Assembly (NCBI GenBank): GCA_963823665.1
Contig: CAWGMQ010000003.1
Location: forward strand, 1,664,001 to 1,728,000
Source: an uncultured Planctomycetota bacterium
Lineage (GTDB): Bacteria; Planctomycetota; Planctomycetia; Isosphaerales; Isosphaeraceae
DNA length: 64,000 bases
Direction: 5' to 3'
The notes under the pieces are model-generated. The model saw nothing but the letters and a program-made list of their open reading frames with translations. It did not search any database and was not told where the DNA came from. Positions 41,012 through 55,312 of this stretch are shown piece after piece. A program made the position numbers and the translations under genes. Every line of letters starts with the position of its first letter. Position 1 is the first letter of the stretch.

Positions 41012-41131
41012 GCCGGAGAATGCGCGGTTGCAGCGGTCAGACCCAGGTCGGAAAATCGCTCTTTAGCAAATAGGGTCTCCAGAGCTTCCGACCTGAAGCC
41101 GCTCGGCACCGACCGAGTTGTGATTGCAACC

Positions 41132-43717
41132 ATGATGTCATTCCTCGGCCCGGTTTTGGTCGCCGTGTTGGCAGCGGCCCAGGCACCCGCTCAAACGCCA
41201 CCTGATCGAAAGCTGTCCGGCGAAGTCGTCGACGGCGAAGGCAAGGCCGTGGCCGATGCCCGCGTGGTGTTCTACGTTCCGCCCGCAAACTTTCGGCGTG
41301 TTAGTCCCCTCGAGACGCAAGCGAGGACCGATCAAGCCGGCAAATTCAGCGTGGTTCGGCCTCGCGTAGAAGTACAGAGGCTCATCGGCGGCAACTTCCT
41401 GGCTTTTGCGCCGGGGCGGGCGATCGGGGCGGTGTCTTACATTGGGCAGCCGCGCCGATTGGTGCTGCAAAAGCCACGCACGCGAACGATCAAGATCGAA
41501 GGGCCCGACGGGCAGCCGGTCGCCGGTGCCCGGGTGGCCATCAGACTCCTCTCGGTCTTCCGCAGCACGATCGCCGAAGTTCCGCCGTCACTCGCGGATT
41601 CGCTCGCCACGAGCACCGGGCCGGATGGCACGACATCGATCGGCTACCTGGCAGAACGCGACCAGCTTGTTGCCGTCCGGATCACGGCCGATTCGATTGG
41701 GTCGCAAGACTTCCTGCTCGTGGAACGTCCCAGCCGCGCCTCCGAGCCACCCGTGATCACCATCAAGCTCAAGAGCACCGGCACAATTTCAGGCCGGCTC
41801 GTCGACGCGAACGCCCAGCCAGTCGCGGGACAAGTCGTCGAGGTTTGGACCAGAGGCGGGGGTACCCGGTTGCTGCCGAACCTGGTCGACTTCAAGGATG
41901 GCCCCCTCCGCACAGGTGCCGACGGCTCGTTCGAGACGCCGGCCAACCTCCAGAAAGGCACGCCCTACCGCGTGGCCGTCCGCGAGCCTGGCACAGATCC
42001 GATTTTTTCCGACTGGATCACGATCCAGGAGAAGTCGCATACGCTGCCGCTATGGGTGCAGCGACCGCTCCGGACCATCCGAGGACGCGTCGTCGACCGC
42101 CAGGGAAAGCCGGTCACGGGTGCCCGCCTTGTGCAGTCCGGCGATGGACCGGAGCGCACGGAGACGACGACCGACGCCGACGGCCGTTTTTCGCTGGCAG
42201 GGTTCCGCCAAGGCCCGGTGTTCATCTTCGTGCGCAGCGCCGGATTTCGATTCCACGGGCAACTGGTCAAGGCGACTGAAGTCGACGTGACGGCCGAGCT
42301 CACTCGCGAAGACGAGCGGCCGGCGCGGGAGATGAAGATGCTCCCGGATTTGATCCCGATCGACGAATCACGAGCGCTGGCGCGCCGGCTGCTCGAGCCC
42401 TGCTGGAAAGTCATAGCTGAAAAGTCTGACGACTTGACGAAAAACCGCTTCCTGTTGGATCTGCTGCCCGTCGACCCGGCCGGCGTGCTCCAGAAGCTGG
42501 AAGCCGTGAAATTCCAGTCGGAAACCCCGCGACTACTGCTGTTGCGGGAAATCGTGCTAGCGCTGGCCGAGCGTGATTTCGAGGAGGCCGCCACAGTAGC
42601 CGAGTCGATCCCGGACCCGGCGACGCGGTCCTGGGCCTTCGTTCGGTTGAGCGACCAGCTTCCAGATTCCGGCCGCGAGCGCAAGCTCGCGCTGCTCGAT
42701 CGAGCCTTGCAGCAAGCCAGAATCGCCAGCGACCAGGGCGATCGAGTAAATCAGATGGGCGAAGTCGCCGAGCGCTGGTATGAGCTGGGAAAGCCCGACA
42801 AGGCCAAAGCCCTCTTCGCCGAGGCCCTCAAAATCGCCACCGCGTTCACCGACAAGACCGATTTCAAGCGCGGCATGTTCGCCGCCAAGTTGGCATTAGT
42901 CGATCTTCCGGCGGCCGAGTTGATCGCCGGGGATTATAAGGGCGACCATTCCGAGGGTCGCATTCTCGCCAACATGGCCTTTCACCTCGCCGCGGAGAGG
43001 CCGGCTGATTGCGAGCGACTCTGGCAGCAGAGCCGGCTCAGCGTGATGGACACAGTACTCAGTTGGAAGCTGGCCACGGTCGATCCGTCACGTGCGCTTC
43101 GCGCGGTGAGCGCACGGTCAAAATCCACCCCTCAGCCCGAGCTCGAAATGTATATCGCCCTCGGAGCAAAGGCTCGCGACCAATCGATCTCTCGCCAGGC
43201 CGTACAAACCGCACTGCAAGGGCTCGACAAGCTCATGGAGGAACGGCCGGAGCGCTATGGGCTGGTCGCCGGACGTTTGTTGTGGCTGGTCGAACAGATC
43301 GACCCCACGATGCTGCCCGAGGTCTTTTGGCGCCAGCTCGCGGGCCGCTCACCTTACGGCAACCCGCGCGCTGATCACGCAGACGGTCCGACTGTCCGGG
43401 TCGCGGAGCTCGCCGTGTACGATCGTGAAGTCGCCGCGGCGCTGTTCCAGCCCACGCTCGCCCGCATGGAGCAGACCGATCCAACCGAGCTGGTCTCCTG
43501 GAGCTACGAGTTCATGTGCTGGTCGCTCATCGACCCCCGCGCCGCGGTTGCGCGGCTCGAGAAGATTCCTGTGCCGCAGGTGCCGGATTATCGGAAAGGA
43601 AACATCGCCGCGCGCCTGGCCGTCGCCCGTTTGCTCGCCCGCTCTAGCAAAGAACGCTGGCGCAATGAACGCGCTGACGAGCGCGAGGTCATCTTCGGCG
43701 GCAAACGAGGGTTTTAG
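41132..43717 (+). CDS. Exported carboxypeptidase-regulatory-like domain protein, paralog 1
   Basis: Repeated G-x-VVD-x-x-GKPV-x-GA beta modules plus helical C-half ending WSLIDPRAAV. Confidence 0.85.
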   Translation: MMSFLGPVLVAVLAAAQAPAQTPPDRKLSGEVVDGEGKAVADARVVFYVPPANFRRVSPLETQARTDQAGKFSVVRPRVEVQRLIGGNFLAFAPGRAIGAVSYIGQPRRLVLQKPRTRTIKIEGPDGQPVAGARVAIRLLSVFRSTIAEVPPSLADSLATSTGPDGTTSIGYLAERDQLVAVRITADSIGSQDFLLVERPSRASEPPVITIKLKSTGTISGRLVDANAQPVAGQVVEVWTRGGGTRLLPNLVDFKDGPLRTGADGSFETPANLQKGTPYRVAVREPGTDPIFSDWITIQEKSHTLPLWVQRPLRTIRGRVVDRQGKPVTGARLVQSGDGPERTETTTDADGRFSLAGFRQGPVFIFVRSAGFRFHGQLVKATEVDVTAELTREDERPAREMKMLPDLIPIDESRALARRLLEPCWKVIAEKSDDLTKNRFLLDLLPVDPAGVLQKLEAVKFQSETPRLLLLREIVLALAERDFEEAATVAESIPDPATRSWAFVRLSDQLPDSGRERKLALLDRALQQARIASDQGDRVNQMGEVAERWYELGKPDKAKALFAEALKIATAFTDKTDFKRGMFAAKLALVDLPAAELIAGDYKGDHSEGRILANMAFHLAAERPADCERLWQQSRLSVMDTVLSWKLATVDPSRALRAVSARSKSTPQPELEMYIALGAKARDQSISRQAVQTALQGLDKLMEERPERYGLVAGRLLWLVEQIDPTMLPEVFWRQLAGRSPYGNPRADHADGPTVRVAELAVYDREVAAALFQPTLARMEQTDPTELVSWSYEFMCWSLIDPRAAVARLEKIPVPQVPDYRKGNIAARLAVARLLARSSKERWRNERADEREVIFGGKRGF

Positions 43718-43774
43718 ACTCGACGAAATGCCATCATCCTTTTCGGGCATCCGCCACAAGTAACGAGTTCACAC

Positions 43775-46353
43775 GTGACCACTCTCCCACTTTCGATGCT
43801 TCTCCTGGCTTTGATTGCTCAAACCCGGCCCGCCCCACGGCCGGCGCGGGGCAACGTCGTGGATGGCGATGACAAACCCGTCGCAAACGCGCGGGTCGTG
43901 CTCTATGCCCCGCCCGTGGCTTACTTGAAAGGCGATCCCGTCGAGGTCAAAGCCAAGACCAATGCCGACGGCCAGTTCAGCCTGGTCATTCCTCCCCTGG
44001 AACGGGCCGTGGTCAACGGCATCAGTTTCGTAGCTTATGCACCCGGACTGGCAATCGGCGCCACGTCGATCCTTCGCGGTGCTCACATCGTGCTGCAAGC
44101 TCCACGTCCTCGATTCGTGAAAGTCGAAGGACCGGACGGCGAGCCCATCGCCGGCGCACGGGTGGCACTCCGAGTTCTCTACGCCTTTGGCGGCACGCAG
44201 GCCGAGATTCCCCAATCACTCGCCGATCCTCTGGCAACCACCACCGGCCCCGACGGCATGACATCGATCGGGTACCTCGCGCCCCGGGACCTGCTCGTCG
44301 CCGTCCGGATCACGGCAGATTCCATCGGCTCGCAGGACTTCGTGCTCGTCGAACGGCCAGGCCGCGGCTCCGAGCCGCCCGTGATCACCGTCAAGCTCAA
44401 GAACGGCTATCCGATCTCCGGTCGACTCGTCGACGAAAATGCCCACCCCGTGCCCGACCAGGTGGTCGAAGTCTGGTCGCGTGGCAACGGAAGCTGGCTC
44501 AAAGCAAATCAGGTCGGATTCAAGGACGGCCCGCCAAGAACTAACGCGGACGGCTCTTTCCACATACCGCCAAATCTTCAGCAAGGCTCAGCCTACCGCA
44601 TAGCGATTTGCGCACCGGGCAAAGACCCGATCTTTTCCGCCTGGATCACAATTCAGGACAAAGCACACACCTTGCCTCTGCTGGTGCAGCGATCGTTGCG
44701 GACCGTCCGCGGCCAGGTGGTCGACCGACAAGGGAATCCGGTCGCAGGCGCCCGGGTTTTCCAGTCGGGCGACGGCCCCGATCGCACCGAAACCACAACC
44801 GCCGCGGACGGCCATTTCTCCCTGGGCGGGTTCCGGCCGGGCCCTGTGTTCCTCCTCGTCCGCAAAGATGGATTCCGGTTACACGGCCAGTTGATCAAGG
44901 CCACCGACGTGAATGTCGCGGCCGAATTGACCCGCGAGAGCGAGCCTCCGTCACGGCCGATGAAGACGCTCCCCGACGTGATCACCATCGACGAATCGCG
45001 GGCGCTCGCACGGCGTTTGCTCGAGCCCTGCTGGAAAGTTCTGGAGGGAGCCGAAGACCCGAAGAAAGGCCGCTTCCTCGAAGCCCTTGTGCCAGCCGAC
45101 CCTGCGGGCGTACTCGACAAATTGGCCACGCTGAAATTCACGAATGAATCCTGGCGCTTCCTTCTCTTGCAAGAAATCGTGCTCGCGCTGGCCGAGCGTG
45201 ACCAGGAAGAAGCCGCGTCCGTCGCCGAATCGATCCCGGACCCGGCCACCAGATCGCTCGCGCTGGCCGAGTTGTCCGATCGCCTCCCAGAGCCACAGCG
45301 CGATCGCAGGCTGGCGCTGCTTGATCGCGCGTTGCAGCAAGCCAGAATCACTGCCCACCAAACTGATCGATTGGCTCGGCTGGGCGACGTGGCCCTCCGC
45401 TTGAGCGAGCTGGGACAATTGGACAAAGCCAAGGCTCTGTTCGCCGAGGGCTTGACGATCGCCACGCCGCTCACAGGCAAGACCGATTTCAAGCGCGGCA
45501 TCTTCGCCGCCAGGCTGGCGCTCGTTGACCTCCCCGCGGCCGAGAAAATGGTCCGTGACTTCAAGGGCGACCGCAGTGAGGCCCGTGTAGTGGACAACAT
45601 GGCCTTCGTGCTGGCTCAATCGCGGCCTGACGATGCCGAGCGGTTGTGGTGTCAGATTGCGAGAAGCGGGCGGTCACCAGCCATCATGGACGGGATCGTC
45701 GGTTGGAAGCTCGCGGGAGTCGACCCGCCTCGCGCACTACGGGTCCTCGACACGTTCCGGAAAACCGGCTACGGCCCCGCGGCCTATTTCTACCTCGCCC
45801 TGGGCGCTGCGCTCGCGACGAATCCATCTCTCGTCAAGCGTTTCAGACCGGCTTGCACGGTCTCGACCAGATGATCGAAGAACGTCCGGAGAGCTACCCG
45901 TTTGAGGCCTTAACATTGTTGCCGGTGGTCGAGGCCACGGACCCGGCGCTCGTGCCCGAGGTCCTCTGGCGCCACGTCGCGTCGCGCCTGCCATATGGAA
46001 ACCCGCGAGCACTTCTATCAGAAACATCCTCACTGCAAATCGCCGAGATTGCGTACTTTGACCGACAAGTGGCCGCGGCTCTCCTGGAGCCCACGCTCGT
46101 ACGCATGGAACAAGCAAGTCCAGATGATCTGGCTCACTGGCCCACCGAGTTCGTGGCGTGGTCGCTCATCGACCCCCGCGCCGCGTTCGACCGGCTCGAC
46201 AAGATCCCGGTCGCTCACGACACCGACATCAACTGCGGCAGCAACGCCGCTCGAATCGCCGTCGGCGCTTCCCTCGCGCGATCCCGTCTGGAGCGCTGGC
46301 GTGCCAAACACGACGAGCGAGAAATCATTTTTAGTGGAAAGCGGAACTCTTAA
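43775..46353 (+). CDS. Exported carboxypeptidase-regulatory-like domain protein, paralog 2 (frameshift near 45810)
   Basis: Colinear with paralog 1 across two ORFs. Confidence 0.8.
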
Positions 46354-46395
46354 GAATGCCCGGGCGACAATAATCTCGGAGGTTTCACTTCACTG

Positions 46396-47837
46396 ATGAA
46401 ATTGAACACAGCCGCATTCGCCCTGGCCCTGGCGCTGGTTCATCCTGCTTTTGATGCCCAAGCCCAAGCCGTCTCTGCTTCCCAGCCAGGCTGGCGCTAT
46501 GTTCTGCCCGCCCCCGGCGACCCGTTCGATCATGCTCCGTTCCGCGCCTTGGTCTTGACCCGAGAGAAGCCCGAGGAACTCGTCGAGAAAGCAGCCTATC
46601 GAGGCGAGAAATCCCGCCGCCGCTACGCACGCATCCGGTACGGCAGTCCCAGCTCGATCAGGGTGAGCATCGTGCTCGACGAGACGGTAAACGGAGAGGT
46701 CGACCTTTACGCCGATGCCGACCGCAACCTCCGCATCGACGACCGAGACCGCGTCAGCGCCCCGCCGGATCTACTGATCGAAGCGCACGGATTTGGCGGC
46801 TTCCCCTCGACGTGGCCGTCATCGAGAACGAGACCGTGCGACCCTTTCCGCGCGCGGTCGTGTTCCGCCTGGGCGCTAGCGGGCAAACGCTCGGTTATGC
46901 CACGGCAGGATACCTGGAGGGAACCGTCGTTGTGCGGTCCCACGAAGATGATAACGACAAACACAAACAGAACCGTGTCCTGGCCGCGCGGCGCGTCGAC
47001 GGCGACGGCAACGGGTTCCTCGCCGACATGCAGGACCGCCTGTACCTCGACCTCGATGGCGATGGGCGTTTTGATCCCGGCGTCGAACAATTCCTCTTCT
47101 CCACCGTGCTGAACCTCCAGGGCGCACGCTATATCGTCCGTTCCGACGAGCTGGGAAACCGGCTTGCGATCGATCCGCTCGAGGGCACGGGCACTCTCCG
47201 CCTGGCGCTTCAACAAAACGGGCCCTCGCCCGCTCCCAAGGTCCTCGAGATGCACGCGACGGCGATCGGCCGCGACGGCTCGGTGTTTGCCTTGTCGGGC
47301 AGCGAGCCAGCGGTCGTACCCGCCGGTGAGTATCGCCTTGGAAACCTGACCGTCTCGCTCGAGCACGCCAAGAGTGGTGAGGCGTGGACGTTCGTCTTCT
47401 CCGACGGCCTTTGGAGTCGCGGGCCCCGCTGGTACAAGGTCGACAAGGATGCCGCGGTCACGATCGACCCGGTCGGTAAGCCGAGTTTCGAGCTCGTGCG
47501 ATTCGATTCCAACGCGACAGCCACGCCCGGCGGGGACGTCGTCGTCCGCCCCGCCCTTTACACCGGCGACGGGCTGCTGATCATCGTCGGCTACTGCGGA
47601 AAGCCGGTGTCGCCCGCAACCCAGGAGCTTCTGGCCGCCCAGGTGAACTTGCTGAAAACCGACGGCCAGACGATGGCCACTGCCCACTCCGGCTTCTCCT
47701 GAGGCACTTTCTGCCAGGCCTCGGTTCGAGTGCCTTCGTCGCAGCCAACGGGGCCTGTCACGATCACCGCCGATTTCGACTCCGGCCCCCTCGCCGGGAC
47801 GTTGCACGCGACCACGACGGTGAACGTGACACCGTAG
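46396..47837 (+). CDS. Exported hypothetical protein; candidate selenoprotein (in-frame TGA 47700-47702; frameshift near 46770)
   Basis: Signal peptide; D-x-D-G-x-G loops; frame stays open 44 codons past TGA (GTFCQASVRVP...DFDSGPLAG...) to TAG47837. Confidence 0.7.
47716..47735 (+). promoter_or_regulatory. Candidate bacterial SECIS hairpin
   Basis: AGGCCTCG-GTT-CGAG(T)GCCT; loop begins with G, 21 nt after the TGA. Confidence 0.55.
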
Positions 47838-47907
47838 AGAGCGATCCCGTGTAGCAGGCACACTCCGTGTGCCGCCCGCTCACCCAAGTATCAAGGAGAT
47901 TTGAGGC

Positions 47908-50513
47908 ATGACGGCGCTACTCGGCCCCCTGCTCTCCGCGCTCTTTCTGATCCAGGCCCAGACCCATCGCACAGTTGCCGGAACCGTCATTGACAAAGAA
48001 GGCAAACCGATTGCGGGTGCCACAGTCGAAATGGCGCCACAGGCCAATCCCTATCTCCCGGGTGAGCCGGCCCGAGCCCAAGCAGCCGTCAAGGCTTTGA
48101 GCGACAGCAACGGTCGGTTCGAGCTCAGAATCCCGCCGGGCCGAATCTTCACGACCCAACTCCGTCTTTGGGCTCATCAACCGGGGCGAGCCGTCGCCAC
48201 TGAGCAGTTGCTGAACGTGAACGAGATTGGGAAGCCTCCTCAAATCGTGCTGTGGAAACCCGAGCCGCGCACCGTGAAAGTCGAGGGGCCCGACGGTAAA
48301 CCTGTCGTTGGCGCGCGGGTTGAACCCCGGTCGATCTCCTTTCCCGGCGGACCTGCCTTTGGTCGCATTCCCGCGTCCCTGGCCTCGCGACTGGCAGTGA
48401 CCACCGGACCGGACGGAACCGCAACGGTTGCGTACCTCGCCCGCCAGGACCGCCTCGTGGCGCGCGACTCACCGTCGATGCGATTGCTGAGCAGGACCTG
48501 CCGGTGGCGGAGGAAATGCGCAACGGCCCGCTCGGTCCCACCGTCGTGATCAAGCTCAAGAAGACGAGCCGGCTTTCCGGGCGGATTTTAGACGACGCAG
48601 GGAAGGGCGCGGCCGGCCAAACGGTCGACGTCTGGTGCCGAGTCAACGACGGCATATTCGCTTCCGGGTCGGTCACCTTCAAGAACGGTCCGGTGCGAAC
48701 GGCCGCGGATGGGTCGTTTCAGACCCCGGATAACCTCATGATAGGCTCATCCTATCGCTTGGTGGTCCGCGAGCCGGGTAGGGAGCCGATCATCTCCGAT
48801 TGGATCGGAATCACCGAACAGCCCGTGACAGTCGCTCCGCTCAAACGGCGGGCGGTTCATTCGGTCATCGGCCGGGTGATCGACCGGCAAGGGAAACCCG
48901 TCGCCAACGTCGAAGTCTTCCAATCGTTCAACGGGCCCGCCCAGACCCTCCGCACGGATGGCGACGGCGGCTTCGCGCTGGAGGGCTTGCCTCTTGACAC
49001 GGTGTTCCTGTTTGCACGGGGCGAAGGATTCCGGTTCCACGGTCAAATGCTCAAGCCGGGAGATGACGAGGTCACGGTCGTGCTGACGCGCAGCACCGAG
49101 CACCCGCAGCGCGAGTTAAGGAAGCTGCCCGACCCGATCCCGCTTGACGAGTCGCGCGCAATGGCCCGCCGGATCATGGAGCGGTGGTGGAAAGCGGCCG
49201 TCGATAAAGGCGACGAAAACGGCAAGTTCTTCGCCGTCCAGTTCCTCATCCCGGCCGATCCGGTCGGCGCTTTGCAGAAGATCGGTGCCGTCAAGTTTGC
49301 GACCGAGCAGTCGCGGTCCCGTCTTCAGAGCCTGGCAGCCCGCTCGCTGGCCCGGACCAATTTCGACGAGGGCGAGACAGTCGCCGAGTCGATCGTTGAC
49401 CCCGGCATTCGCGCGCGGAACTCTGGCACACCTGGCCGATGTTGCTGCCAGAGAGCGCAAAAGCAGCGCAAGCTGGCGATTGTCGAACAAGCGGCGGTCT
49501 CTGCCAAGGCGACGAGCACGCCTTCGGACCACGTGTCTGCGCTGGGCGAGGTGGCAGGGCGGTTGCTCGATCTGGGAAAGATGGATGAAGCCAAGACGCT
49601 CTTCGCGGAGGGCCTTCGCAATGCGAGGGAGTTCAAAGACGAGACGTTGCGGCGCAGGTCGTTCGCCGGGCTCCTGGCGCTGGTGGACCTGCCGGGGGCA
49701 ATAGAGCTGGCCAAGCAGGCCGGTGACGGGCGCTACGCGGCTGCCGCTCTCCACAGCATCGCCTTCGGCCTGGCCTGGGATAAACCGGCCCAAGCGGAGC
49801 AATTCTTGAAGGAATACCCGCCGGGAAAGGGCGCGGGTTGGCTGACTCCGAAGGTCACCTGGAAGGTCGCAACGCTCGATCCCAAGCGTGCCCGGCAGCT
49901 CGTTGACACCCGCCGCGATCAGCCAAATTACTTCGAGCACGAGTTTTGCCTGGCCCTGGGGGCGAAGGGGCGAGACGAGACAATTTCAAGGGCGGCAATC
50001 CAGGCCGGACTGCAAGCGCTCGATCTGACCCTCAAAAAACGGCCGCTCGTGCTGACCCGATCCGGTGGACCGTCACTGGCGATCATCGAAGCGATCGACC
50101 CGGCTCTGGTTGACGAGGTGATGTGGATCGCAATCGCGGCCCTGCCGCCCTCCGCGCGGGATATGCAGTTGAATGTGCCCGGCCCTGTTGTTGCACCGAG
50201 TGCCTGGTACGACCGCGATGTGGCCGCTGCGCTGCTTGCGCCGCGAGTACGGCGCATCGAGCAGGCTGCCGACCCCGCGCTCGTCAATGCGGAGCGGGTG
50301 CTCGACGTCTGGGCGCTGATCGACCCCCGCGCCGCGGTCGCCTGGCTCGAGAGAGCCCCGATGACCAGCACCAACCCCAACGACAACTTCGGGTGGATCT
50401 ATGTCGTCGAGAAGCTCTCCCTGGACAGAGACGAGCGCTGGCGAAAGACTTTTCTCGACTGGGCACCCGTCTTCAACCCGGCCAATCGCGATGTCATGTT
50501 CGACCGTTTCTGA
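47908..50513 (+). CDS. Exported carboxypeptidase-regulatory-like domain protein, paralog 3 (frameshifts)
   Basis: SD AAGGAG; colinear with paralogs 1-2; ends DVMFDRF. Confidence 0.8.
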
Positions 50514-50527
50514 AGGAGTGCTTCCAC

Positions 50528-53129
50528 ATGCTGGCCTTGGCTGCCCCCCTGCTCTCTGCCATCCTGCTGGCGCAGCCCGTGCCGGAAGGCAAAGTCGCCG
50601 GCACCGTCGTTGACGAGCAGGCCAAACCAGTCGCCGGTGTCCAGGTCGTGCTGTACGCGCCGCCAATCGGCAACTTCAAGGGCGATCCGGTCGAGGCAAG
50701 ATCCCAGACCGACCCAGCCGGCCGATTCGATTTCACGGCGCCGCCGCTGGGCCGAATCTACCGGCGCGGAGTCCACATCTGCGCATTCAAAGCGGGATTC
50801 GCCATCGCTGCGGTCGAGTTTCAGCTCAACAAACCGCACCAGATCGTGCTCCGCAAACCCGAGACTCGCCGCGTGCGGGTCGAAGGGCCCGACGGCAAAC
50901 CGGTCGCGGGCGCACGCATCGAAGCCGCGTCTGATCTCGTTCTCAGGCGGAACGGGCACCGCCGATATCCCGGCCTCGCTAGCCTCTCCTCTGGCCGCGA
51001 CCACCGGAGCCGACGGCACCGCGACCCTCGCTTTCCTCCGCGATCGCGATCGTCTCGTGGCAGCACGCTTGAGAGCGGACCCAGTCGGCGAGCAAGACCT
51101 GCCCGTTGCGGAGGTAACCGCGGCAGGTAAAGCCCCATCCACCTTCGAGATCAAGCTCAAGAAGACCGGCCGGCTCACGGGCCGTATCGTTGACCTCACC
51201 GGCCGCGGTGTCGCCGGTCAAGCCGTCGAGATCTGGTCCAGAGGTGCCTCCGGCGGGTTCATTCCCAATCCAGTCGGCTTCACTAACGGTCCGCCCAGAA
51301 CGGGATCCGACGGCGCCTTCCAGACACCTGCAAATCTCCTGATCGGCTCATCCTACCGGGTCGTCATTCGCGAGCCCGGCAACGAGCCGATCATCTCCGA
51401 TTTCTTCCCGGTCACCGAGGATTCCGTCGCGATTCCCACCCTCGAGCTGCGACCACTGCGCACCGTTTCCGGCCGGGTGGTCGACCGGCAGGGTAATCCC
51501 GTTCCGGACGTCGAAGTCTTCCAATCGGGCGATGGTCCCAAGCGAACGTCTGTCCGGACCGACGGCTCGGGTCGCTTCGCGCTCGGAGGGTTCCCGATCG
51601 GAACCGCCTACGTCTTTGCTCGCGGCGAGGGCTTCCGATTCCACGGCAAGCTGCTCAAGCCAGGCGAAAAGGAGGTTCACGGTCGAGCTCACGCGGTCTA
51701 ACGAGCGACCCGCACTCGGGCTGACCAAGCTCCCCGACCCGATCCCGATCGAAGAATCACGCGCCATGGCCCGCCGGATCATGGAGCGGTGGTGGAACGC
51801 CGCCGTCGAAAAAAGAGACGAAGGCGGCAAGTTCTTCGTCATTCAATTTCTCCTGCCGGCCGACCCCCTCGGCGCGATGCAGAAGATGAGTGCCGTCAAG
51901 TTCTCTTCGGAGAAGCTGCGCGGAGCCGACTTCACAGCCTCGTGGCCCGCGCCGTGGCCCGCACGGATTTCGAGGAAGGCGAGACCCTGGCCGAGTCGAT
52001 CGCCGACCCGGGCATCCGCGCCGGAACGCTCGCACACCTTGCCGACTTGCTCCCCTCGCGCGAGAAACAACGAAAGCTCGCGATCCTCGAGCGTGCCCTG
52101 ATCCAGGCCAGGGCGACGAACAGGCCGAATACCCGCGTGTACCAGTCCGGCGAGGTTGCCGGCCGTCTGCTCGAGCTCGGCGAGACGTCAAAAGCCCGCG
52201 CCCTCTTCGCCGAGGCACTTGCACAAGCAAAGCAGTCGAAGGATGTGTCGTTCGGACGACGAGCCTTCACCGCGATGCTCGCGCGCATCGACCCGGCCGG
52301 AGCGATCGAGATGGCCAAGCAGGTTGCCGACGACCAGCTCTACGGGCCGCTCGCGCTCTCAAGCGTCGCGTTCGGCCTGCCGTGGGACAAGCCGGCCGAG
52401 GCCGATCGGTTCCTTAGCCTTTATCCCCCTGACAAGCCGCCGAGCTGGCTCGAGCCCGTGATCGCCTGGAAGATCGCAACGCTCGATCCCGCCCGTGCGC
52501 GGAAACTGATCGAATCCCAGCGTGGCGAGCCCGATTATGTGCAGCACGCTTTTTGCGTGGCCCTGGGAGCGAAGGGGCGAGACGAGCCCACCATGAACGC
52601 CGCCGTTCTCGGCGGGTTTGCAAGATCTCGATCGCGTGCTCGACAAGGAACCGCACATGCTGATGCAATACGGCGGGGCGGTACTGGCGATCGCCGAAGC
52701 CATCGACCCCGCCCTTGTGCCGGAGGTGATGTGGCGCCTGGTCTCCGCCCGGAACTTCCCCGGCAATCCGCGGGTCGTCGGGCGCCTATTCTCCGATGCC
52801 GCTCGTCGAGTGCATCGCCTGGTACGACCGGGCGCTTGCCGCCGCGCTCCTCGAGCCCACTCTGGCGCGCATGGACAAGATCAGCGATGCCGAGCTCGGT
52901 GGATTGGGACTGGGCATTCGAAACCTGGACCCTCATCGACCCCCGCGCCGCGGTCGCCCGACTTGAAAAGATCCCGATGCAGAGCACCAACCCGAACGAC
53001 AACCGGCTCTGGATCTACGTCGTCGAGAAGCTGGCCCTGGACCACGACGAGCGCTGGCGAAAGACCTTCAACCAGTGGGAACCCATCTTCAACCCCCACG
53101 TCCGCGATTTCATGCTTGATCGCTTCTGA
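50528..53129 (+). CDS. Exported carboxypeptidase-regulatory-like domain protein, paralog 4 (several frameshifts)
   Basis: SD AAGGAG; MLALAAPLLSAILLAQ; ends DFMLDRF; closest to paralog 3. Confidence 0.8.
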
Positions 53130-53138
53130 CCTCCAAAG

Positions 53139-54485
53139 TCAAAAAGTCCACCCCTCCTTCCGCTTCATCGCCTTCTGACAATATTCAATCATCCTTTCAA
53201 TATCGATGCTGCCCGAGGTATCCGGAATTTCATCCGGACAGCTCGCTTCCCCGGACGGCAATCCCAGCTCCTGGCGAAGCGGATCGCGATACCGCTTGAG
53301 CCACGACAGCCGCCGATTCGGATCGGAGAAAGCAAGCAAATAGTCGCAGCCGCACTCCGCCAGCGCGCGCCGCAGCTCCGGGTCGTCGCCCAGGTCCGAA
53401 CAGGCAAGCGTGAAAAAGTTGTCGAGCTTGAAATACTCGATGTCCCTTCGTGACAGACCAAGCTTATTTCGCAAACATTTCGCCTCGGGTGTGCCTTGCA
53501 TCGTGAGAAAGAGAAATGTCTTCACGAACACAAAGTCCGCGTAAAGCTCCACCACAAAGTATCCCACCTTCCTGTCGGGCTCGCCCACTTCGACGAGAAA
53601 GGCGTCGACACCTTCCGCGCGGTGAAGCACGGGCCGCGCCAGTGCCTCGATCATGGACCTGTGCAACACGCTGCGGTCCAGGACGATGGGTACCCGCTCA
53701 TGCAACCTTCGGATCGCATGTTCGCTCACGTAAACCGGCAGGTCGCGGTCGTTGTCGCCGATTCCGATCACGGTCGGGTTCCATAACAATCGTCGCGTTG
53801 TGCCGTCCACCGGATCGGATCGTTCACAAAGGTAGGCTCTGCGCCGCCCTTCCGCCACCGGCAACGAAAGCGGAAGCGGCCGTTTCCTTCCCACAACGAT
53901 TCGGAACGCGGGCCGGGCCGGATATCGGGGGTTCTGTTCGACTCGACACCAGACAACTCGCTCATCGACGCGCAGGAAGAGATCGGCTGCTCTGTTCAAC
54001 TGCCGCGTGACTCTCCGGAAAACATTGTTGAGGTGGTGTTTTTCGAAATGAGCCATCCGCCGCTGCGATTCCTCGAGACGCTCGATCATTGCCGGCTTGA
54101 CGGGCTCTTTTCGTTTGGGCGCATGCTCGCCCAGGAAATACACGAGGTCCCGGACGTTCACCAGCCCTCGAAAAACGTCGTCGAGCGAGACTTCGCAGTC
54201 GTGGCCGTCAAGCTTGAAGCGCAGCGGCATCGCCACCGCTCGTTCGAATAGTGCCTTCACTTCCTCGATTTCCGGGTCGTCTTTCGAGCACTCGGAAATA
54301 TCCACGTCGATTCGGGGCGCGATCACGAACAGGATCGAGGACCTCGGCAGCCAGTCGAGAGGCGTGAAGACCGATTTCAGCCCGAATAGATCGAGCAGCC
54401 GCTCGATAACGTCATACCTGCGGTCATCAGCCTGCCGCCGCTTCGCTTCCTTGTGACGCAGCTTTTGCTTTTTGGTTTTTTTCAT
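53139..54485 (-). CDS. Hypothetical protein
   Basis: Long uninterrupted ORF; LPVYVSEHAIRRLHER, KTFLFLTMQGTPE. Confidence 0.75.
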   Translation of the reverse strand: MKKTKKQKLRHKEAKRRQADDRRYDVIERLLDLFGLKSVFTPLDWLPRSSILFVIAPRIDVDISECSKDDPEIEEVKALFERAVAMPLRFKLDGHDCEVSLDDVFRGLVNVRDLVYFLGEHAPKRKEPVKPAMIERLEESQRRMAHFEKHHLNNVFRRVTRQLNRAADLFLRVDERVVWCRVEQNPRYPARPAFRIVVGRKRPLPLSLPVAEGRRRAYLCERSDPVDGTTRRLLWNPTVIGIGDNDRDLPVYVSEHAIRRLHERVPIVLDRSVLHRSMIEALARPVLHRAEGVDAFLVEVGEPDRKVGYFVVELYADFVFVKTFLFLTMQGTPEAKCLRNKLGLSRRDIEYFKLDNFFTLACSDLGDDPELRRALAECGCDYLLAFSDPNRRLSWLKRYRDPLRQELGLPSGEASCPDEIPDTSGSIDIERMIEYCQKAMKRKEGWTF

Positions 54486-54547
54486 GATCGATCGGGCCTG
54501 GTTATTGCGATTTCCGCCAAACCAGGCAAGATCGATTTCAGGTGCGA

Positions 54548-55312
54548 TCAAGCCGTCGCCCCGCCGTCCACCACGAAAACCTGGCCGGTTACGAACGAAG
54601 CTTGATCGGAAGCGAGGAAAACCGCTAAACCCGTGACATCCTCCGGCTGCCCCAGCCGCCTGATCGGCTGCGCGCCCACTAATTGCTGACGGCGCGACTC
54701 GTCTTCCCAGAAATAAGCACTGAAATCCGTTTGAATCAAGCCAGGCGCCAGCGCGTTGACCCGAATGCCATGCACCCCAAACTCGCGCGCCGAGGAGCGC
54801 GTCATCATGATCAGACCCGCCTTCGTGAAGCTGTACAGCATCCCCATCGGTTGGGGTCGCAGCCCGGATATCGAGCTCACGTTGATGATTGACCCGACGC
54901 GCCGATCCTCGATCATCCGCGGCACCGTGAGCCGCACCAACCGCAGCGCCGCCTTGATATTGATCTCGATCATCTTGTCCAGCATCTCATCCGTGACATC
55001 CAGCGACGCCCCCTGCCCCACATTCGTCGCGCTATTGTTCACCAGAATATCAACCGGACCCAGCCGGCCCTCGGTCTGCTTCACGAGCGCCTCGACTTGC
55101 TCCACTCGTCCCAGGTGGCAAACGATCGGAACCACTTTGCCCGCAAGATTCGCCAGTTCTTCCGCCGCGGCATCCAGGTTCTCTTTCTTGCGGCTGGCAA
55201 TCACGACATTCGCTCCCGCCTCCGCAAGCCGCCCTGCAATCGCCTTGCCGATTCCGCGGCCGCCGCCGGTTACGAGCGCAACCTTGCCGGTCAAGTCAAT
55301 CGCGTTGCTCAT
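54548..55312 (-). CDS. SDR family oxidoreductase
   Basis: [13 protein letters not shown] (YxxxK), VNALAPG, VDGG. Confidence 0.93.

Follow-up and report, generated by a model that had tools for sequence, protein, structure and literature searches.

A candidate exported selenoprotein gene in an Isosphaeraceae genome points to a superfamily with selenocysteine on a predicted macroglobulin-like Ig domain

An in-frame TGA in a gene of an uncultured planctomycete is, judging from comparison of its homologs, almost certainly read as selenocysteine (Sec). The gene lies in a 64,000-nt stretch of contig CAWGMQ010000003.1 (assembly GCA_963823665.1, Isosphaeraceae), referred to here as the window, and its product is likely a 480-aa selenoprotein predicted to be exported. 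We consider it very likely that the gene represents a new selenoprotein superfamily, in which recoding of a known type is combined with an unusual fold and motif. The proposal as a whole, namely selenoprotein recoding together with likely export and a redox role in the cell envelope, has in our view somewhat better than an even chance of being right on the sequence evidence.

RESULTS

A gene that continues past an in-frame TGA

46396..47837, + strand: predicted exported selenoprotein gene (480 aa with a missing base counted; Sec436 and Cys440)
46378..46382, + strand: ribosome-binding site GGAGG, read from the sequence, with the ATG 13 nt downstream
46396..46464, + strand: predicted signal peptide (K, hydrophobic stretch, A-Q-A), read from the sequence
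46760..46763, + strand: C run short by one base, an apparent frameshift (short-read contig and comparison with locus L039)
47700..47702, + strand: in-frame TGA, predicted Sec codon (comparison of homologs)
47712..47714, + strand: Cys codon of the U-x-x-x-C motif, four residues past the TGA
47716..47735, + strand: predicted bacterial SECIS hairpin (GUU loop at 47724-47726, bulged U at 47731 on the 3' side, 8 pairs)

An ORF with a GTG start at 46812 (46812-47702) is in frame with the TGA, and beyond it the frame stays open for 44 codons (GTFCQ...VNVTP) to a TAG at 47835-47837. Both this extension and the Cys four residues into it had been proposed in an earlier, sequence-only reading of the window, and translation confirms them. 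That reading also took 46396-47837 as one continuous gene for an exported protein. The gene does span these positions, but it is not a single frame: the ATG at 46396, where the signal peptide starts, is in a different frame from the TGA, the two frames join near 46760, and the one-base frameshift there had been missed.

Locus L039, from the same genus, has one base more than the window at 46760 and is intact, with 435 codons ahead of its TGA. A contig from run X1 (208 bases, depth 3.3, single contig) matches 46604-46810 without substitution and has an extra C behind 46759. Because of these two comparisons, and because three of the four neighboring paralogous genes also show frame changes, we read the base loss at 46760 as a likely assembly error, and on the same grounds a true pseudogene was rejected. 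The TGA itself is found in short-read data: a contig from run X2 is identical to the window across 47685-47871, TGA included, and extends just 15 bases 5' of the TGA. A hydrophobicity count over 90 full-length representatives gave a hydrophobic stretch within residues 1-35 in 80 of them, compared to 11 within residues 61-95, in line with the predicted signal peptide.

The gene is present a second time in this genome (G000:C6:1760358-1761663; L011, L073, L113), with the TGA and the hairpin as in the window copy; this further copy contains several frame changes, and the partner-type gene upstream of it is fragmented. Directly past the stop codon of the window copy lies a short palindromic repeat (47845-47881, one copy in the window). 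Since many contigs of other loci match it, with a summed depth of up to 206, it is likely a multicopy REP-like element.

Homologs end at the TGA or carry Cys in its place

Features of the single sequence are not beyond chance: folding z-scores are weak (-0.5 to -1.5), and 13 of the 210 TGA-ended frames of at least 100 codons in the window also show at least 40 open codons and a SECIS-like hairpin. The case therefore rests on comparative data. A search found 271 homologs, labeled by source as Isosphaeraceae or Planctomycetota, and the following counts cover the 120 homologs listed. Of these, 115 end exactly at [SA]GF[AS], the TGA column; three run off before the column, and two read through it without Cys, with Trp in P0109 and Arg in P0038. 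Among 56 DNA loci, four do not reach the column and the other 52 all have TGA there (the 52 include duplicates, the window and its paralog, and collapse to 46 distinct sequences). The tail past the TGA is 40-57 codons long, varies synonymously and aligns up to its end. The Cys at +4 is present in 46/46 distinct loci picked by a motif pattern that itself demanded that Cys, and it is invariant in the TGA rows of alignment A2.

A profile search returned 814 representatives at E 0.001 and 320 at 1e-30. Among the best 150 of the 814, 122 end at the column, 25 fall short of it and three read through (P0190, P0201 and P0271), all with Cys at the column in a Cys-G-x-x-Cys motif. P0274 is a fourth Cys form, and with L090 and L092 from the wider superfamily there are six Cys orthologs in all, an undercount because the 814-representative profile lost the columns past the TGA. 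With TGA or Cys at the column and conservation on both flanks, the homologs support the selenoprotein reading.

A SECIS-like hairpin kept by compensatory changes

Folding of 47703-47745 recovered the hairpin reported in the sequence-only reading, with its eight pairs, bulged U and GUU loop 21 nt after the TGA. The bacterial SECIS model, as described in PMC13188914, has a loop of 3-9 nt, a stem of 4-16 bp, a spacing of 16-37 nt, a G within the first two loop positions and an energy of -7.5 kcal/mol or lower, and the window hairpin falls inside it (3-nt GUU loop, 8 bp, 21 nt, -9.4 to -9.9 kcal/mol). Among close family members, the codons that make up the putative hairpin are locked (Ala GCC 45/45, Arg CGA 43/44, Val GTG 43/44), compared to upstream frequencies in the same genes of 0.56 for GCC, 0.07 for CGA and 0.29 for GTG, which shows constraint with little covariation.

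Covariation was found further out. Across 29 distant members, 88% of cells pair around position +25, compared to at most 61% around other centers. When these were joined with 6 close members (35 sequences hand-picked for a TGA and a matching motif, the structure being derived from the same sequences), 86% of cells paired and two-sided changes occurred at 6/6 pairs. The observed level of covariation was reached in 0/500 shuffles and slid partners paired at 30-54%, while additional pair types were no more numerous than in shuffles (312/500). The predicted hairpin is kept in distant relatives by compensatory changes, and its varied sequences at a fixed distance make a natural test set for SelB recognition.

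Were the TGA instead a true stop, or read as Trp or Cys, the tail would be conserved as a separate or non-coding element. Among the genuine stops of these genes, too, TGA is the commonest (36/46), one Trp and one Arg read-through form exist, and the hairpin alone is not unusually stable. Nevertheless, we judge this reading very improbable: the tail's codons change synonymously while its length is kept, it supplies strands of the predicted domain, neither TAA nor TAG was ever seen at the site in the 52 loci or in the 125 C-domain profile matches listed, and Cys orthologs exist. Whole-genome reassignment of TGA was rejected because ordinary TGA stops end neighboring genes. Recoding of the UGA as Sec is the reading that we carry forward.

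Sec machinery and distribution of the gene

The machinery on which the sequence-only proposal depends is present: the window's genome has selA, selB and selD above cut-offs and a tRNA-Sec with anticodon TCA (UCA). It also encodes a second selenoprotein, of known type, in a formate dehydrogenase alpha-type gene (L168, G000:C5:531591-532334) with an in-frame TGA (QART-U-HS) and a hairpin.

At the order level the gene occurs in 33 of 121 genomes, and selA (E 1e-60) is found in 29 of these 33 vs. 51 of the 88 others; the four gene-bearing genomes lacking selA at this threshold (69-83% complete) contain selB, tRNA-Sec or selA fragments. When 401 sampled genomes of the phylum were searched with a Sec-domain profile, 68 gave matches, at up to 8 copies per genome. 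Among the 125 C-domain profile matches listed, 107 have one internal TGA, four have two and 14 have none. The selA gene was found in 64/68 domain-bearing genomes (63/67 besides the window's own) vs. 290/401 in the same sample, an enrichment that is overstated because kin genomes are not independent. Four domain-bearing genomes lack a selA match. Copies in G072 and G225 carry TGC, the only two genomes seen with this codon, and the copy in G241 has neither Sec nor Cys at the site. G063 (90% complete), whose copies have TGA, counts as a counter-example unless selA is missing from its assembly.

In 11 of 67 domain-bearing genomes, selA and a match share a contig and are no more than about 2 kb apart; G209 is a twelfth. 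In G208, G376 and G055, superfamily members flank selA, selB and a third gene, which is NapH-like in the two scanned. These clusters (L107, G208:C105; L110, G376:C190; L111, G055:C97) have the form selA-selB-NapH-like ferredoxin with two or three superfamily genes flanking, and the ferredoxin is possibly a membrane electron donor. Two full-length selA matches per genome were seen in G208, G055, G376 and G088.

Proximity to selA and the high copy number in some genomes would suit a role in selenium handling, with the protein as an exported carrier, store or sensor of selenium linked to the Sec machinery. This seems to us improbable. A single Sec in 480 residues makes a poor store, linkage to selA is expected of any selenoprotein that travels with its machinery, selA and selB of the window's genome sit on a different contig from the window, and Cys forms persist in the two TGC-bearing genomes.

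A predicted Ig-like domain carries the Sec

46492..47477, + strand: predicted N-terminal and middle all-beta domains with D-x-[DN]-x-[DN]-G loops, the N-terminal part common to TlpA-type redoxin fusions
47478..47834, + strand: predicted C-terminal macroglobulin-like Ig domain carrying Sec, with its last strands encoded past the TGA (model pLDDT 89.5)

The model of full-length L039 is nearly all beta (pLDDT 89.4, pTM 0.86). In the model of the window's C-terminal domain, Sec is placed at a turn following a strand, and more strands are encoded past the TGA. The sequence-only reading had called the protein non-thioredoxin, and the models agree: a thioredoxin fold with UxxC/CxxU does not fit, since both models are nearly all beta strand, the spacing is U-x-x-x-C and no thioredoxin Pfam match was obtained.

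The best structural match to the C-terminal domain was 4u48 (Z 11.8, rmsd 2.3, 97 aligned), followed by 2p9r (Z 10.6), and many unrelated Ig folds scored Z 9-10. Structural matches included macroglobulin, adhesin and S-layer Ig domains, and a whole-model Foldseek search returned only low TM-scores. A sequence search of solved structures gave nothing below E 0.02, and the wide structure search, which barely probed the N-terminal and middle domains, gave no match to them. Sec is thus predicted to sit on a loop of a macroglobulin-like Ig domain; this Ig fold is a common one and reveals no function. The D-x-[DN]-x-[DN]-G loops resemble calcium-binding loops and may be Ca2+ sites.

Five proteins have the N-terminal scaffold joined to a redoxin or thioredoxin-like domain, with WCGPC in two (P0296 and L094) and no CxxC in the other three. 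Support for the shared scaffold in P0296 is modest (hhalign 91.6%).

Members and motif variants of the superfamily

The gene belongs to a phylum-wide superfamily that was not visible from the window by itself and whose members often, but not always, have the +4 Cys. P0279 aligns to the family at 98.6% probability, and a profile of P0279 relatives matches it at 99.7% over almost the full length; the motif in these relatives is FEYG-U-GG[TS]C-xYSWRVP and variants. Elsewhere in the superfamily we found CU, UU and CC forms, forms with Sec and no Cys close by, and copies that have neither residue. A resolving Cys is evidently not required, since the +4 Cys is missing from many distant members.

Two loci (L145, G287:C137; L147, G287:C249) have two adjacent TGA codons (GS-U-U-G and AS-U-U-G) where relatives have C-U or C-C, possibly a vicinal double Sec served by a single hairpin. 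In L077 and L078 (G254:C66 and G206:C2) the Sec domain lies mid-protein, and the approximately 485 codons past the TGA, with F5/8-like and LamG domains, are lost in standard annotation. L151 (G192:C442), L152 (G046:C26) and L148 (G109:C26) keep the domain with neither Sec nor Cys in the loop, and several such copies are tandem and short. Three homologs are the C-terminal part of BlaR1/M56 proteins, and 2/2 scanned match PF05569.

The vicinal CU, UU and CC motifs and the Sec-only forms raise the possibility that the exported protein uses its Sec to capture or sense soft metals or metalloids (Hg, Cu, Ag, As) by binding them, with no redox cycle. A BlaR1/M56 fusion suits a sensor, and CU motifs appear in the metal-related SaoL, HgcA and MbdU families of Table 1 in PMC13188914. 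We nonetheless consider metal binding unlikely: the flanking ORFs that were scanned included no recognizable metal-resistance or transporter gene, and the scaffold is otherwise joined to redoxin domains.

Neighboring partner-type genes

41120..43717, + strand: partner-type gene (CarboxypepD_reg repeats and helical repeats), intact, 865 aa
43775..46353, + strand: partner-type gene directly upstream of the selenoprotein gene, with a frame change near 45810
47908..50513, + strand: partner-type gene directly downstream of the selenoprotein gene, with a frame change near 48462
50585..53129, + strand: fourth partner-type gene, start approximate, with a frame change

The selenoprotein gene lies within this tandem array of four CarboxypepD_reg and helical-repeat genes (41120-53129), three of which are frame-changed, suggesting indel errors of the assembly. 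Between the array and a short-chain dehydrogenase gene is a 470-aa ORF (53139-54551) of no obvious family. A gene of the partner type is located upstream on the same strand in 35 of the 52 loci, many of which have only about 1.5 kb of flank, and these 35 include three genomes from other families. One partner is fused to an ECF sigma factor. The partner proteins are Cys-poor (1-11 Cys each); one column of their alignment has Cys in 12 of 22 and lacks it in the three window paralogs aligned.

Recurrent pairing with a repeat protein, and an all-beta multi-domain model that matches macroglobulin, adhesin and S-layer Ig domains, are also what might be seen if the product were a structural envelope protein or adhesin, with Sec and Cys forming a stabilizing bond or a covalent link to a partner and no catalytic cycle. 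To our knowledge, almost every characterized Sec is either catalytic or a ligand of a metal. Retention of a costly Sec throughout the phylum for a structural bond would be unusual, and we give this explanation little credence.

DISCUSSION

Proposed function

We propose that SelB, bound to the hairpin 3' of the UGA, would allow the UGA to be read as Sec. The product would be a 480-residue all-beta protein, probably exported, with Sec on a loop of a C-terminal Ig-like domain that would occupy the position held by thioredoxin in sister proteins. The exposed Sec would attack a disulfide or an oxidant and Cys440 would resolve it, so that Sec436 and Cys440 might cycle between reduced and selenenylsulfide states. 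The protein may act on, or sense for, envelope proteins, for example the upstream CarboxypepD_reg/helical-repeat protein. That it functions as an envelope redox protein or sensor is, in our estimation, roughly an even bet. The WCGPC redoxin fusions on the shared scaffold, the NapH-like gene after selA-selB and the BlaR1/M56 fusions point toward a redox role; counting against it are the optional second Cys, the Cys-poor partners, the three of five fusions without CxxC and the modest link to P0296.

Significance

Our broadest interpretation is a tentative one, to which we give a little less than an even chance. Here the family would be among the largest unrecognized bacterial selenoprotein superfamilies, with a Sec-bearing macroglobulin-like Ig domain replacing the thioredoxin domain on a shared exported scaffold across Planctomycetota. 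It would constitute a new non-thioredoxin envelope redox or sensing module, connected to large repeat proteins and to transducers of the BlaR1 type; its variants would be U-x-x-x-C, CU, UU and Sec-only, and it would be a main reason that many of these bacteria keep Sec machinery. In hundreds of protein clusters (the 814 and 320 of the profile search) the annotation seems to omit both the active residue and the final strands of the domain. The family would bring an exported Ig-fold class into a catalog in which thioredoxin folds and anaerobic metabolism prevail. It also suggests that selenium is spent on envelope chemistry in Planctomycetota, with selA so widespread in the sampled genomes. One member, P0121 (source name OJF2_66720), belongs to a cultured organism, Aquisphaera giovannonii, and the selenoprotein claim is therefore directly testable.

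Comparison with known systems

Pfam and NCBIfam 20.0 gave no relevant family match for the close, distant or Cys forms. NF049953 had no match in the genome, and the control for it matched nowhere either. Identity with "hypothetical protein DG" (172-position model, Desulfosediminicola) was rejected. In the 2026 catalog of 119 selenoprotein families, which includes the families of Haft and Tolstoy 2025 (Table 1 of PMC13188914, as far as available), we found neither the motif nor the family. The term "Planctomyc" has no mention in the main text, as available, of PMC13326102, PMC13745706 and PMC12013277. The literature as far as available, including PMC4807772, has no description of the family; supplementary candidate lists, or those of the groundwater survey of Deng et al., could contain it.

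The closest likeness in recoding is to selenoproteins of the formate dehydrogenase alpha subunit type, in which the UGA is likewise followed by a small in-frame 3' hairpin with an early loop G (model in PMC13188914). In the window's own genome, the formate dehydrogenase-type UGA is followed by such a hairpin as well, its GGUCU/GUC loop lying 18-19 nt downstream. The protein described here differs from that type in being predicted to be exported and all-beta, with U-x-x-x-C and no family model match.

The N-terminal domain of DsbD and DUF1573 are Ig-like folds with a redox Cys or Sec on a loop. DUF1573 with UGC is listed as a selenoprotein family in Table 1 of PMC13188914. The Sec family differs from both in its motif and has no Pfam match, and neither of them is among the fold matches listed.

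The MG domains of alpha-2-macroglobulin and complement are the best structural matches to the C-terminal domain, as a predicted model. The alpha-2-macroglobulin family has a thioester CGEQ motif and a multi-MG architecture of about 1500 aa. In contrast, the protein described here has a single MG-type domain in 480 aa, with identity of at most 21%, and its translation lacks the thioester motif and further macroglobulin domains.

The exported TlpA/AhpC-TSA redoxins of Planctomycetota (P0296 and L094) have the N-terminal beta scaffold and D-x-N-x-[DN]-G loops in common with the Sec family. They end in a thioredoxin domain (WCGPC), whereas the Sec family ends in a middle beta domain and the predicted Sec-bearing Ig-like domain.
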